In this document: piece after piece, positions 652-33,214 of the stretch
How the letters are laid out: every line of letters begins with the position of its first letter
Numbering within the stretch: the stretch's first letter is position 1
Source of the DNA: Elusimicrobiota bacterium
GTDB taxonomy: Bacteria > Elusimicrobiota > Elusimicrobia > UBA1565
DNA length: 54,789 nucleotides
Assembly: GCA_043819795.1 (NCBI GenBank)
Contig: JBDREN010000209.1
Span: 1-54,789, forward strand
Direction: 5' to 3'
Notes under the pieces: model-generated
The model's input: only the letters and a program-made list of their open reading frames with translations
Database searches by the model: none
What the model was told of the DNA's origin: nothing
Program-made: the position numbers and the translations under genes

Positions 652-2082
652 ATGGTTAAAAGACTGCTCTTTGCCGCATCCGCCCTCTTCCTGGCGGGCT
701 GCACCGCCTCCCAGACGACGCGGGGTCCCGGCGGAGCCCTGCTCGGCGCCCGTCCGGCCGGCGGCGACCCCGTCATGGAGCTCGATGTCTGCCCGTTCGC
801 CTCCCCGCGCGTGGCGAGCGTTTCCGGGTATAAGTGGGGGGCCGTAGTCCGCAACTATGAGCGTGCGGTCATCCCGGCCATGGTGAAGGCCTTCAAGTCG
901 AAGAAGAGTCACAGCGCGCCCTTCCGCTCCATTCAAAACATCAAGTCGCTCGACGACTCCCGCGGTATCGCGGCTTTCGGGTGCGATATTGCCGTGGAGA
1001 TCGGCATCCTGAACAAGAAGATTGCCGCCTGGACCTACTCCGCGCGCACCAAAAGGCAGTTGTTCGAATCCGTTTTCACCGGCGTCCCCGTAACGGGCGG
1101 CGATTGGGGCTTCAAGATGCGGGAAGCGGTATACAACGAGTTTCAGAAGGCCCCCGCGCTTTTGAAGCAGATCCTGGCCCAGCGCGACGCGGCGGCCGCG
1201 GAGGCCGCGGTGGCGTCGGGCGGCGTGTCCCAGGAGATGCTGGAGAAGATCGTCGCCTCGGCCGTGGCCAGGGGGAAGGAGGAGGAGAAAAAGCCCGCGG
1301 CGAAGACCTCGGACGTGGACACGCCGGGCTACCGCCGTCCGGAGCGCCCCCACGACTTCGCCGTGGTCGTCGGGATCGAGAAGTACTCCGAGATCGCTCC
1401 CGCCGCCTACGGCGAGCGCGACGCGGCGGCCGTCGTGAAGCATTTCGAGGCCCTGGGGGTCCCGCGCCGGAACATCGTCCACCTGCCGGGCGTCAAGGCC
1501 ACGCGGACGGGACTGCTCAAGTACCTCAACGCCTGGCTGCCCAAGAACGTGACACCCAAGAGCCGCGTGTATTTCTTCTACTCCGGGCACGGCGCGCCCG
1601 ACCCCGAAAGCGGGGAGGCGTATCTCGTCCCCTTCGACGGCGACCCGAACTTCCTCGCCGACACCGCCCTGCCGCTCAAGAAGCTCTACGCTTCTTTAAG
1701 CGGCCTTCCGGCGAAGGAGATCGTCGTGGCGCTGGACGCCTGCTTCTCGGGCGCGGGCGGACGTTCGGTCCTGGCCCGGGGAGCGCGTCCGCTGGTGATG
1801 CGGGTGAGGGGCGCCGCGCCGGTGTCCTCCAAGATCATCTTGCTGACGGCGGCCTCCGGCAGCGAAATCACGACGACGATCGAAGAGCAGGGCCACGGCA
1901 TCTTCACCTACTACTTCCTGAAGGGCCTGCAAGGCGAGGCGAAAGACCGGCGCGGCCGCGTGACCGCGGCGGGCCTCTACGACTATCTCAAGCCGAAGGT
2001 CCAGGACGAGGCGCGCCGCCAGAACCGCGACCAGACCCCGGGCCTCGTCGGCCACTCCAAGCGGGACCTCCTCCTCCGGTAA
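652..2082 (+). CDS. Caspase-family (peptidase C14) lipoprotein
   Basis: Lipobox LFLAGC; C-terminal domain with AVVVGIEKY, catalytic YSGHG and LDACFSG, and HGIFTYYFLKGL. Confidence 0.85.
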   Translation: MVKRLLFAASALFLAGCTASQTTRGPGGALLGARPAGGDPVMELDVCPFASPRVASVSGYKWGAVVRNYERAVIPAMVKAFKSKKSHSAPFRSIQNIKSLDDSRGIAAFGCDIAVEIGILNKKIAAWTYSARTKRQLFESVFTGVPVTGGDWGFKMREAVYNEFQKAPALLKQILAQRDAAAAEAAVASGGVSQEMLEKIVASAVARGKEEEKKPAAKTSDVDTPGYRRPERPHDFAVVVGIEKYSEIAPAAYGERDAAAVVKHFEALGVPRRNIVHLPGVKATRTGLLKYLNAWLPKNVTPKSRVYFFYSGHGAPDPESGEAYLVPFDGDPNFLADTALPLKKLYASLSGLPAKEIVVALDACFSGAGGRSVLARGARPLVMRVRGAAPVSSKIILLTAASGSEITTTIEEQGHGIFTYYFLKGLQGEAKDRRGRVTAAGLYDYLKPKVQDEARRQNRDQTPGLVGHSKRDLLLR

Positions 2083-29745: not shown

Positions 29746-30390
29746 ATGACTTCCTACCGGTTGTCCGTGATTGTCGCGGGAATCCTCATGTTGGCCGCGT
29801 CAGTGGCCGAGGCGCAATCGAGAATCCGGTACCGAGGGCAGCGAGGCGGCGGCCTCGCCGCGGGCCGGAGCGGCCGCGCCTACAGCCCCGGCGGAGGCTC
29901 GCACTCCATGCGGATCCGCAGGGCGGCCGTATCCCGGCCAAGCGCCATGGCTTCGCGGCGCGGGGCATCCTCTTTCGGAGCGTCTCAATCTTCGGGGCAG
30001 CGGGGCCCCGGAATCACGCCCATTCCCTCTGCGCCCTCGCCGGCGCACAACATCCGCAGGACGATGGCCTACCGCTGGCAGGCGGCCCCCGAGGCCAAGC
30101 CCGGAAAGCCGATGCCGTTCATCCGCGACGAGTTCTTGGAGCGCCTGGCGCGGGAGCGGCGCGTCCAGGAGGGGATACGCGAGCTTCCGTACACCCGCAC
30201 GACGATCCGGGAAGACGACGACATCCCGGCGCGCGGCGATGGCGCGGTCTTTATCGGTGGAGGCTCCTATCTGCCGGTCGCGATCGGGAGCACCGGGACG
30301 CACAACCGGGACCAGGGGGGGCGCCCTGCGGACCCCGGAAGCCCCCCCGGCTCATCCTCCGGGAAAGGCAAGGGAAAAGACAAGAAGTAG
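29746..30390 (+). CDS. Secreted low-complexity hypothetical protein
   Basis: Purine-rich RBS, signal peptide ending VAEA|Q, Gly/Ser/Arg-rich body. Confidence 0.6.
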   Translation: MTSYRLSVIVAGILMLAASVAEAQSRIRYRGQRGGGLAAGRSGRAYSPGGGSHSMRIRRAAVSRPSAMASRRGASSFGASQSSGQRGPGITPIPSAPSPAHNIRRTMAYRWQAAPEAKPGKPMPFIRDEFLERLARERRVQEGIRELPYTRTTIREDDDIPARGDGAVFIGGGSYLPVAIGSTGTHNRDQGGRPADPGSPPGSSSGKGKGKDKK

Positions 30391-30415
30391 TCCGGGCTCC
30401 AACCCCGAGAATTCC

Positions 30416-30444
30416 TTGCTAGAACTGGGTTTCTCTGTTATACT
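30416..30444 (+). promoter_or_regulatory. Sigma70-type promoter for the ncRNA/tmRNA locus
   Basis: TTGCTA-17 nt-TATACT with extended -10 TG; predicted start near 30451. Confidence 0.75.
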
Positions 30445-30450
30445 GCGAAT

Positions 30451-30830
30451 GGAAGTTCACCCGCGCCTGTCGTATCCGTCGTCGATGAGTGGTCAGCGCC
30501 GGTTGCGCGGAGCGCCAACCGGTCGCTTGCACCGCTGTGTTATCAAGGGATTGCCCGCCGGTGGGGGGCGGGGCTCCCTGATAGAGTAGAGGTGTAAGCG
30601 CCGCAAGCGCAAAGCGCTTGCGATGCTGGCATGGGTGCGACCTATTAGTGGGCGGCATGGCCCGCCCACCTTAGTAGGGGTGACCCGCAAGGCCCACTCA
30701 GGCGATGTGGGTCTTGCGGGCTCGAGGGGGCGGCAGCCCCCAGGGGGAGCACCCGCGCGAGCACGGTACCTTACTCGCGCGGGCCTTCAGGCCCCGAGCG
30801 CAGCGAGGGGTGCGACAAGCGGGGGTGAAT
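30451..30830 (+). ncRNA. Large structured ncRNA, resembling a shortened OLE RNA (5' domain)
   Basis: No credible ORF; at least six hairpins enclosed by a 23-nt closing stem (21 pairs). Motifs CAAGGGAUUG..UCCCUGAU, GGCAUGGGUGCGAC, AGUAGGGG..ACC, AC.CAGGCGAUGU occur in the order I recall from OLE RNA (recollection, not searched). Confidence 0.6.
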
Positions 30831-30913
30831 AGGTTCGACAAGCGTCGTATTACCTGGAAGCCGCAGGCCCTGGTTGGTCGGAGCCAGGATAAAATCCGGC
30901 CAAAACAACAAAA

Positions 30914-30946
30914 GCCAACTCACCGTTGGCCTGGGCCACTGCCTAA
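30914..30946 (+). other. tmRNA proteolysis tag reading frame (A)ANSPLAWATA*
   Basis: A-rich run then GCC AAC TCA CCG TTG GCC TGG GCC ACT GCC TAA after the pk1 region. Confidence 0.85.
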
Positions 30947-31163
30947 CCCGCAGTAAGTCCACGTCGGTCCCCCGACGCCTGCTAGGGGGGTGCCGGCGTC
31001 AAGAAGCAGGCTGGGAGCCGCGTCGCGCGCTTCGTCGACGCGGGTCCGAGACCATAACGGAGCTGGTCCCGGGATACTTGTCCGGCGGTTTTCCCGGGAC
31101 GAGACCAACGCCGGGCTAAGCCTGTAGTGGCCCCAGGGGGCGGCGTTTGGACGCGGGTGCGAT

Positions 31164-31832
31164 CAAGATGGTCGCCTCCCGGAGCGATCCGGGATGATAA
31201 AACCTGGCTTAATCAGGGGAACCTAAATCCACCGCTGATCGTACATAGCGGGGGACATGGCAATCCTGAGGGGCGCAAGCCCTGCAGAGACTGTTCCCGG
31301 GCAGGGTCCGGGGACGATGGAAAACGGAATGGCTGAGACGGATAAGGCCTATCTGGCCGGGCTGATCGACGGTGAGGGCACGATCACGTTGACGCGCCAT
31401 CATCGCAATCAGTTCCCTCAACCGAGAGTGTCGATCTCCAACAACAGTCTTGAGTTGTTGGAGTGGGTGAGGGAGCGGCTGGGCTGCGGAAATATCATCC
31501 GCCGTTCGCCACGCAAGGAGCACCATGGCAAGTCCTATGTGTGGCAGGTCCAGCTGGCTGGTTCAGCGCTGAAGGTGCTGCGAGAGATCAGGCCTTATCT
31601 CGTGCTGAAGCGTCGGCATGCCGACCTGCTTCTGGAAGACTATAAGGCGTGTACGCCTCGCAACGGGAAGTATTCCCCGTCCATGCTGGCGGCGAAGCGC
31701 GGGCTGGTCGGCCAGATTAGGCGGCTGAATCAGACGGGTCGGTCACGTTTTCCATAATACGTCAGGCTCCGTCGGCTTCGGCCGGCGGGTGAAGAGATAG
31801 TCCACGCCGCTCGGAAACGAGCGGGATGCGTG
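31164..31832 (+). mobile_element. Group I intron (669 nt, IA-like with P7.1/P7.2) in the tmRNA T-loop
   Basis: 5' exon ends in U and pairs GCGAU/GUCGC with a U-G wobble (P1). P AATCAGGGGAA, Q GGCAATCCTGAG, R GCAGAGACTG, S AAGAGATAGTCC; P3 CCTGGC/GTCAGG; P8 UUCG and P9 GAAA hairpins; terminal G at 31832. Confidence 0.93.
31317..31757 (+). CDS. Intron-encoded single-motif LAGLIDADG homing endonuclease (146 aa)
   Basis: DKAYLAGLIDGEGTI, VSISNN..ELLEWV...LGCG.I, L.EIRPYLVLKRRHA; alternative start at 31329. Confidence 0.93.
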   Translation: MENGMAETDKAYLAGLIDGEGTITLTRHHRNQFPQPRVSISNNSLELLEWVRERLGCGNIIRRSPRKEHHGKSYVWQVQLAGSALKVLREIRPYLVLKRRHADLLLEDYKACTPRNGKYSPSMLAAKRGLVGQIRRLNQTGRSRFP

Positions 31833-31888
31833 TCCCGCCACCTCCACCATTTTTTGTGGGCGCGGTTCGCGTCCACTAGGGGTCTTCT

Positions 31889-33214
31889 ATGCTGGGCAGG
31901 CGCAACGTCGCGCTCCTGGGCTCCAACTTCATCTTCGCGGCGGTCTGCGCCGCCCTGTTCTTCTATCCGGGCTGGGAGCTCGTCCTCTACCCGGCCTGCG
32001 GCATCATCTTCCTCTGGAACGACTTCCGGCGCGAGGACGAGATCCACGTCATCTTCGTCTTCCTGGCGACCGCGGCCGCGCTGCTGCTCATGACGCGGGC
32101 CACCGATCCGGGCGTGCGGGTGGGGTTGGCCATCGAGGTCGTGGGGGTCTGGGCGCTGAGCTTCGGGCTCGGCCTGCACCGCGGCCAGCTGGCATCCGAG
32201 GAAGGGCGCGTCCTGAGCAAGGTGGACGAGATCGAAGCCCAGACGCGCGACAGCCAGCGCGAGCTGCGCTTCTACAACACCTACGAGGGCACGGCCGTGG
32301 CCCAGATCCGCTTGCGCCGGGACCTGACGCAGGCCGCCAAGAGCCTGGGCACGACGATGGACCCCCACGAGGTGCAGGTGCGCCTGATGAAGATTCTGGA
32401 GGGGCGCTACAAGGGAAGCCGGGTGAAGATCCTGCCCGGCATGCCGCAGGACCCGATCGTCAACTGGGCCGCCAAGACGCACGCGCCCGTGCTCGTCAAG
32501 GACATGGATCTCGAGATGCGGTTCGGGCCTCGCTCGACGGGGCACGGGTTCCGGTCGGCCCTGGTCGTCCCCCTGAGCGTCATGAAGAAGCCGTACGGCT
32601 TCGTGGCCCTCAAGGCCGAGAAGACGGGCGCCTACACCAACGACGATCTGCGGACCGTGGACCTTTTCGCGACGCTCGCCTCGCTTACGCTCGAGAACAT
32701 TCACCTTTACGAGGAGGTCCACAGCCTCGCGACCCACGACGGCTTGACGCAGCTCTTCACTCAGCGTGCGTTCCGGATGAGACTGAAGGAGGAGATGCTC
32801 CGGGCCGGGCGCAGCCAGATGCCGATGGGTCTGATCATGGGCGACATCGACTTCTTCAAGCGCTACAACGACACCTACGGCCACCAGGCGGGCGACGAGC
32901 TCCTGCGCGCGGTGGCGCGCATACTCGTCAACCAGACCAGGCCTGTCGACTGCGTGGCGCGCTACGGAGGGGAGGAGTTCGCCGTCATCCTCCCGAACAC
33001 GGTCCACGGGCGGGCGGTGGACCTGGCCAACCGCATGCGCGACGCGGTGGCTTCGGAGCCGTTCGTGTTCCAGGGACAGCGGACGCGGGTCACGATGAGC
33101 TTCGGGGTGTCCTCGTTCCCGAGCGACGCCACCTCCCTGAGCCAGCTCGTCCGCGTGGCCGACGAGAGGCTCTACAACTCGAAGTCCCAGGGGCGCGACC
33201 AGGTGACGGGGTGA
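31889..33214 (+). CDS. Membrane-anchored GAF-GGDEF diguanylate cyclase
   Basis: N-terminal TMs, GAF-like region, DGLT, DIDFFKRYNDTYGHQAGD, RPVD I-site, RYGGEEF. Confidence 0.93.
   Translation: MLGRRNVALLGSNFIFAAVCAALFFYPGWELVLYPACGIIFLWNDFRREDEIHVIFVFLATAAALLLMTRATDPGVRVGLAIEVVGVWALSFGLGLHRGQLASEEGRVLSKVDEIEAQTRDSQRELRFYNTYEGTAVAQIRLRRDLTQAAKSLGTTMDPHEVQVRLMKILEGRYKGSRVKILPGMPQDPIVNWAAKTHAPVLVKDMDLEMRFGPRSTGHGFRSALVVPLSVMKKPYGFVALKAEKTGAYTNDDLRTVDLFATLASLTLENIHLYEEVHSLATHDGLTQLFTQRAFRMRLKEEMLRAGRSQMPMGLIMGDIDFFKRYNDTYGHQAGDELLRAVARILVNQTRPVDCVARYGGEEFAVILPNTVHGRAVDLANRMRDAVASEPFVFQGQRTRVTMSFGVSSFPSDATSLSQLVRVADERLYNSKSQGRDQVTG

Follow-up and report, generated by a model that had tools for sequence, protein, structure and literature searches.

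A tmRNA gene of an Elusimicrobiota bacterium divided in its T-loop by a group I intron that encloses a LAGLIDADG endonuclease gene

How does a bacterium with apparently one tmRNA gene come to carry a 669-nt insert in the T-loop of that gene, and what has kept the endonuclease gene in the insert intact? The question is raised by a contig of 54,789 nucleotides (JBDREN010000209.1 of assembly GCA_043819795.1), analysed in full and called the window here. The original prediction described a split ssrA gene, an actively mobile group I intron with an intact LAGLIDADG reading frame, and a non-clostridial host. For the last point, the closest named record with the endonuclease is indeed an Elusimicrobia genome.

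The predicted ends of the tmRNA gene, its tag frame and the boundaries of the insert hold to the base (Table 1). In-silico removal of 31164-31832, which is flanked by TGCGAT and TCCCGCC, leaves a 360-nt tmRNA that ARAGORN calls with the tag ANSPLAWATA*, and the predicted ligated exon junction reads GGTGCGAT/TCCCGCC. Nine positions that keep the same insert length (-4 to +4) were compared in a junction test; the predicted one alone combines a -1 U, a terminal G and the T-arm and acceptor sequence of relatives, while 0/8 shifted junctions match that sequence in intron-less relatives (reference loci L025 and L034). Across its full 360 nt the spliced form is at most 88.9% identical to intron-less relatives. 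Standard annotators had been expected to miss this ssrA, which is true of ARAGORN (0 tmRNA genes in the unspliced window and genome) but not of Rfam, whose model RF00023 scores 88.3 bits on the unspliced DNA against a cut-off of 47, with a span of 30828-31183 and the 3' end wrongly placed within the intron.

A check for another ssrA found a single tmRNA gene above the Rfam cut-off in the assembly, which is 90.3% complete and consists of 241 contigs. Downstream of the split gene lies a GGDEF-type gene that is also found 3' of the intron-less tmRNA gene in relatives, so the split tmRNA sits at the native locus. An intact SmpB gene is present in the genome. That trans-translation would depend on splicing, as proposed, is implied by the anatomy. 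Back-up rescue could nonetheless come from two short proteins with a GGQ motif and basic tails, which match the ArfB model (NCBIfam) below its cut-off.

Table 1. Coordinates of the tmRNA gene, the intron and associated features (window positions unless a contig is named).
Feature	Position	Strand	Basis or remarks
Sigma-70 promoter of tmRNA transcript, predicted	30416..30444	+	TTGCTA, 17 nt, TATACT, extended -10
tmRNA gene, intron-split	30821..31849	+	5' end GGGGGTGAA at 30821, CCA end at 31849
tmRNA exon 1	30821..31163	+	Acceptor 5' strand, pseudoknot region, tag frame, 5' T-arm part to -1 U (31163); RF00023, ARAGORN on spliced form
Tag reading frame ANSPLAWATA*	30914..30946	+	ARAGORN resume consensus and tag, in-silico spliced form
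Group I intron, 669 nt	31164..31832	+	T-loop position 7 (after sixth loop base); omega-G 31832; junction test, RF00028, covariation
P1	31159..31175	+	Exon GCGAU with internal guide sequence; U31163-G31171 wobble at 5' splice site
5' ribozyme half	31177..31292	+	P2 31177-31194; P3 5' strand 31203-31208; P4 31213-31217 with 31265-31269
5' ribozyme half, continued	P6a 31271-31282; P7 5' strand 31289-31292	+	Hand-mapped pairing, covariation
P7.1 hairpin	31293..31315	+	8 pairs, mean pair probability 0.89
P7.2 5' strand AUGGAAAACG	31317..31326	+	AGGAGG-type Shine-Dalgarno just before endonuclease start in most relatives
LAGLIDADG homing endonuclease gene, single-motif, 142 aa	31329..31757	+	LAGLIDGEG at 31353-31379; Pfam, AlphaFold, Foldseek, dN/dS
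P7.2 3' strand CGUUUUCCAU	31746..31755	+	10 pairs with 31317-31326, mean pair probability 0.99
3' ribozyme half	31761..31832	+	P3 3' strand 31761-31766; P8 31768-31789; P7 3' strand 31799-31802
3' ribozyme half, continued	P9.0; P9 31807-31824; omega-G	+	Hand-mapped pairing, covariation
tmRNA exon 2	31833..31849	+	Last T-loop base, T-stem 3' strand, acceptor 3' strand, encoded CCA; identical to intron-less relatives
GGQ-motif proteins, ArfB-like	L161 282-698 (contig C32); L162 212-658 (contig C214)	-	Same genome

The element is almost certainly a group I intron in a tmRNA. Its helices are named by the standard group I scheme, and P1, P2, P3, P4, P6a, P7, P7.1, P7.2, P8, P9 and P9.0 all pair in the window sequence. 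The core helices P3, P4, P6, P7, P8 and P9 with the P3/P7 pseudoknot are present, as are the predicted U-G pair in P1 and the terminal G, and P7.1 and P7.2 form two extra stems between P7 and P3'. T-loop positions are numbered after the legend of Fig. 2 in PMC11915505. Of the two Rfam models suggested for checking the locus, RF00023 recognised it, as described above, but RF00028 gave 22.9 bits (31154-31824, E 0.0035), below the cut-off of 50, because the ORF loop of about 420 nt breaks the model; the cut-off is a library threshold and no biological criterion. The endonuclease-free intron of the relative G012 scores 49.5 bits.

Covariation was examined over 17 related introns. In the alignment used for the count (A3, all 17 introns), 97.3% of 764 cells in nine helices are paired, with P8 pairing checked in the window only. 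Both sides have changed with pairing kept in 22 of the 46 pairs over these introns, and a separate compensatory check covered 15/17, the misaligned G012 and L130 being omitted; an alternative alignment (A4) was left out of the counts because the P3 strand of the window was misaligned in it. None of 500 shuffles reached the observed pairing, a result that kinship of the sequences can also produce; slid controls nonetheless fall to 32-49%, in a comparison that favours the real structure in so far as it was drawn from the window row. The U-G splice pair is present in 17/17 introns and all four P7 pairs are invariant across them, while P7.2 has 7-10 contiguous pairs in every one, around loops of 11 (G012) to 425 nt. 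A plain energy fold, a method that cannot model the pseudoknot, gives pair probabilities of 0.20 for P3 and 0.18 for P4.

The reading frame in the intron is an intact LAGLIDADG frame as predicted, with 32.2 bits against the Pfam model LAGLIDADG_3 (PF14528, cut-off 22.5) and a start refined to ATG 31329, from which homologs align. The AlphaFold model of the 142-aa protein has a pLDDT of 92.7, and the best structural matches found by Foldseek are I-CreI and I-CvuI, with a TM of about 0.7-0.8 for single-motif LAGLIDADG enzymes. The protein has the alpha/beta saddle fold and one LAGLIDADG helix with the catalytic acidic residue. It resembles I-CreI, I-CvuI, I-MsoI and I-Vdi141I in fold, in the acidic residue of the helix-1 motif and in the lysine of the YL-LK motif, at 20-27% identity. 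These enzymes reside in rRNA introns, whereas the putative target of the window protein is the DNA of the tmRNA T-arm. The symmetry of that target, centred on the T-stem, amounts to 6/11 pairs, and two other centres are equally symmetric.

A homolog search returned 512 proteins at E ≤1e-10, with 26 at 130 bits or more besides the query itself, and D14, E16 and K94 are invariant across the top 28 homologs. Comparison of the window with G029 gave a dN/dS of 0.113 at a dS of about 2.4, which is near saturation; two further comparisons were saturated. This ratio indicates that the endonuclease is under purifying selection.

The endonuclease gene forms the loop of P7.2, and its TAA stop overlaps the foot of the stem. 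The longest ORF, with a start at 31257 (31257-31757, 166 aa), was rejected since a start there falls inside the core of the ribozyme and the majority of homologs start close to 31329. An alternative in-frame ATG at 31317 would add four amino acids and has moderate upstream pairing with the anti-Shine-Dalgarno (-6.5 kcal/mol). The 5' strand of P7.2 pairs with the anti-Shine-Dalgarno motif at -8.5 kcal/mol or stronger in 13 of the 17 introns, a raw count without a shuffled control. The start region of the window, at -3.3 kcal/mol, is the weakest of the 17, and the P7.2 stem has been preserved through compensatory changes despite this weak strand. Because the start region is one strand of P7.2, translation would occur mainly when the stem is open, which would keep ribosomes off the ribozyme.

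The 3' end of the gene also varies. A one-base difference ends the window ORF at the foot of P7.2, 12 codons ahead of the tail of its closest homologs, which the shifted frame still encodes; many homologs are equally short. Of the next 27 homologs, 10 have an ORF that extends into P3' and P8, and in two (P0007 and P0009) the ORF continues across the 3' exon of the tmRNA. Endonuclease ORFs without a stop in the intron and 3' exon were seen in L046 (G029, 848-1423, minus strand) and in the proteins P0007 and P0009. An excised intron with such an ORF would be a non-stop message and therefore a substrate for tmRNA itself.

To place the intron among its relatives, 60 genomes were searched, of which 54 have a tmRNA above cut-off, and 50 loci were read. 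The expected intron-less alleles make up 47/50, and the intron is present in three: in G012 without the endonuclease, in G014 cut by the contig end, and in G029 with the endonuclease. The TGCGAT loop occurs in all three carriers and also in 10 parsed empty loci; relatives further show the loop variants TGCAAC, TGCAAA and TGCGAA. A sample of 400 genomes from the phylum yielded G098, whose intron contains the endonuclease, and G368, whose intron retains no more than both ends of the gene. In L094 and L130 the gene is frameshifted or deleted. Every stage of a homing cycle can thus be read from sequence among the relatives, namely empty sites, intact genes (window, G029, G098), broken, two-ended and gene-free introns. 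Eight relatives (L042, L043, L048, L050-L054) have tmRNAs with non-canonical T-arm loops (GGCAGCA, GGCAGTG) that lack the -1 U and are presumably unable to host an intron of this type.

The claim of active mobility was not upheld by the divergence of these introns. Intron-core and exon identity are 83.7 and 83.7% in one of the two closest carriers and 79.8 and 79.9% in the other, dS is about 2.4, and the Shine-Dalgarno strand is the weakest of 17. Recent horizontal transfer among the closest carriers is unsupported, since intron identity follows exon identity. In the more distant carriers the intron core is somewhat nearer than the exons (70.7 against 61.8% in G098; 71.6 against 70.3% in G368), which can be explained by the conserved core. 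The intron has no blastn match in a phage collection, and an exact 28-base pattern of its core is absent from a metagenome collection. This pattern fits an old element, often lost and kept by occasional homing, and no fresh invasion.

Sequencing runs were also searched for the locus. In DNA run X3, a 643-nt contig showing 29 differences reaches from exon 1 across the 5' splice site into the first part of the gene; the 3' splice site is crossed by a contig of 256 nt from DNA run X1. None of 24 listed sequencing runs holds half of the query words. Of four runs searched at 80% likeness, two are RNA runs, and in these the spliced junction was not found, their contigs covering exon 1 only; these contigs belong to relatives, so that splicing is neither shown nor excluded by them.

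We consider it likely that the locus is an old resident intron in the single tmRNA gene of this Elusimicrobiota bacterium and that it still carries a working homing endonuclease; the element as a whole is well preserved and probably functional. This account builds on the anatomy, the boundaries, the covarying structure, the intact fold, the purifying selection and the empty alleles seen here, and from the general biology of group I introns and LAGLIDADG enzymes we infer splicing, translational control, target site, cutting and homing. The split gene would be transcribed as one precursor, in which the ribozyme would cut after U31163 with free guanosine and join exon 1 to U31833, restoring the T-loop UGCGAUU. 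The mature 360-nt tmRNA would then work with SmpB. The endonuclease gene, placed in the P7.2 loop outside the catalytic core, would be translated mainly before P7.2 closes or after the intron unfolds. Its product, as an I-CreI-like homodimer, would cleave the T-arm DNA of tmRNA alleles that lack the intron, and repair of the break would copy the intron in. Occasional homing may have preserved the gene over long times, while other lineages would have lost the gene or the whole intron.

The alternative that survives best, though we judge it unlikely, is that the intron splices while in this lineage the endonuclease has fallen silent, is beginning to decay or is retained solely as a maturase (a splicing helper), and that the element is now inherited vertically. 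The eroded Shine-Dalgarno strand and earlier stop in the window, the divergence of intron and exon in step and the presence of all stages of gene loss among relatives would suit it, and a LAGLIDADG maturase is known for the 23S intron of Thermotoga neapolitana (PMC3984707). However, the frame is intact with invariant catalytic residues, a dN/dS of 0.11 and an end branch of only 0.13 for the window protein, and ATG 31317 offers a moderate upstream pairing site (-6.5 kcal/mol). As for a maturase, endonuclease-free relatives retain the same core, so splicing seems independent of the protein.

It is far less probable that the gene is dead, with an intron that no longer splices and with rescue left to ArfB-like factors or to an ssrA that the assembly lacks. 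The 90.3% completeness, the two short GGQ proteins below the ArfB cut-off and the search of RNA runs, in which junction reads were not found among contigs of relatives, leave some room for it, but every counted helix pairs, no damage is seen in the acceptor stem, tag frame or CCA, SmpB is intact and the GGDEF-type neighbour marks a native locus. An assembly artefact that joined a foreign intron to the tmRNA is hardly credible even for a draft of 241 contigs in which the endonuclease has a GC3 of 0.73 against 0.95 in a neighbour gene, because the exon-intron pairing in P1 is exact, G012, G014, G029, G098 and G368 have the same intron at the same site, and the 5' and 3' splice sites are crossed by contigs from two further DNA runs.

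The founding case of an intron-form tmRNA is said to be that of Williams in 2002. The original prediction took such a host gene to be rare, a view overtaken by the catalogue of Nawrocki, Petrov and Williams (2025; PMC11915505), with 883 intron-form tmRNAs, every one interrupted in the T-loop and the majority at position 7. Introns at position 7 occur there in 21 phyla, none exceeds 700 bp, and an endonuclease gene is present in 36 of the 883, placed in the P7.1 region in 19 of 23 founding cases. The split gene in the window is one further case of this class, with which it has in common the host gene, the subsite, the -1 U with G in P1, the omega-G, a length below 700 nt and a nuclease in the P7.1/P7.2 region. 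There is no difference of kind, although the strong Shine-Dalgarno strand of P7.2 is lost in the window copy. The class includes a close relative: JAHFCF010000021.1/3810-2803 (L070), from Elusimicrobia and with a 64%-identical endonuclease, is in the seed list, the first 23 (long) rows of which do not contain the window coordinates. P7.2 as a ribosome-binding site and endonuclease genes just outside the intron go undiscussed in the available part of that paper. A literature search found no paper on an Elusimicrobi- tmRNA intron and, judged by titles and abstract openings, none on a free-standing homing endonuclease beside tmRNA.

I-TevI of the T4 td intron belongs to the GIY-YIG family, unlike LAGLIDADG enzymes. 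Hiding the ribosome-binding site in a hairpin is a known way of controlling intron endonucleases (PMC3073962), and the window arrangement is like that of td/I-TevI in its nuclease gene in an intron loop, its stem-hidden ribosome-binding site and, in many relatives, an ORF end that lies over ribozyme helices. The td intron differs in having the gene in the P6 loop, an mRNA host and a local hairpin, whereas the stem in the window closes around the whole gene. The window adds a case to the 4% of the 883 that keep an endonuclease, is a warning to annotators that such ssrA genes are missed by ARAGORN, and offers a clean, compact substrate for testing the homing of tmRNA introns and how nuclease translation is fitted into a stable RNA. 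It brings two additions, a nuclease gene in the loop of P7.2, a stem whose 5' strand in most introns serves as the Shine-Dalgarno of that gene, and a protein family that stays beside tmRNA genes.

That family was followed in a metagenome scan with homolog alignment, which confirmed at least 498 of 597 candidates; the best 80 loci were kept, several of them near-duplicates. Among these best 80, 72 adjoin a tmRNA gene (motif parsing, with Rfam on 20 loci). By motif parsing the gene lies within P7.2 in 14 of the best 80 and directly after the 3' exon of an intron-bearing tmRNA in 47 (43 sense, 4 antisense), with a duplicated tmRNA 3' end in four of the 43 sense loci. The remainder of the best 80 comprises one gene after a 3' exon without a parsed intron, nine partial loci, eight with nothing and one unparsed. 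Examples with the gene right after the tmRNA 3' exon are L101, L116, L118 and L149 (many among L100-L158), and in the four with a duplicated 3' end it is a duplicate T-loop and acceptor end that follows the gene. L092, L093, L096 and L097 have introns at T-loop position 2 with a member of the endonuclease family antisense inside (L092 and L096 by eye, the others by motif).

A tree of the endonucleases (84 rows, 143 columns, quick method, root open) groups the window with G029 and G098 (SH-aLRT 95), with a short end branch of 0.13 for the window protein and outgroups on very long branches. An order of events from outside to inside the intron had been considered and was dropped, as the tree with its open root leaves the order undecided. 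As a tentative reading, the gene may be the captured state of an endonuclease family specialised on the tmRNA T-arm across bacteria, caught both before and after capture. The series would run from genes outside ORF-less introns to antisense genes in position-2 introns and sense genes in P7.2 of position-7 introns. After capture, the Shine-Dalgarno of the gene would have become a strand of P7.2, tying nuclease synthesis to the unfolded intron.

If this reading of capture is true, the layouts would form a natural sequence of stages along the collaborative-homing route to mobile introns, and the protein of the stop-less relatives would be tmRNA-tagged for destruction by its own host gene. The collaborative homing of ORF-less introns with free-standing endonucleases is described in PMC3984707; the relatives just outside ORF-less tmRNA introns in 47 of the best 80 loci resemble it, unlike the window gene, which lies inside its intron. 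A nuclease found both inside and outside tmRNA introns could be used to test how mobile introns form.

Upstream of the gene, the lone promoter-like site in 30300-32000 (0.3 +/- 0.5 in shuffles) is the probable promoter of the tmRNA transcript. Between it and the mature 5' end are about 370 nt filled with repeats, which would form a precursor leader of that length. At 30633-30819 (plus strand) is a hairpin-rich repeat of 187 nt with GGGTGCGAC at each end, separated by 1 nt from the start of the tmRNA; blastn gives 28 matches to it in the genome, some in tandem, and Rfam none. Elsewhere, copies stop 1-4 nt short of tRNA-Pro, tRNA-Val and tRNA-Trp, a further copy precedes a tRNA-Leu-like start, and related copies lie directly 5' of the tmRNA in G007, G013 and G012. 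The fold of region 30560-30822 has a z of -5.6. The repeat is MITE-like, perhaps favouring tRNA leaders. A second dispersed family, with 26 blastn matches in the genome, occupies 30492-30620 (plus strand), between the predicted promoter and the 187-nt repeat.

Group I introns were also met elsewhere. In other Elusimicrobiota genomes, L065, L067 and L069 are 23S rRNA introns bearing LAGLIDADG genes. The genome of the window itself has a second group I intron (L160, contig C90, 996-1219, minus strand; RF00028 46.8 bits), which is ORF-less and interrupts an apparent tRNA gene in the anticodon arm.
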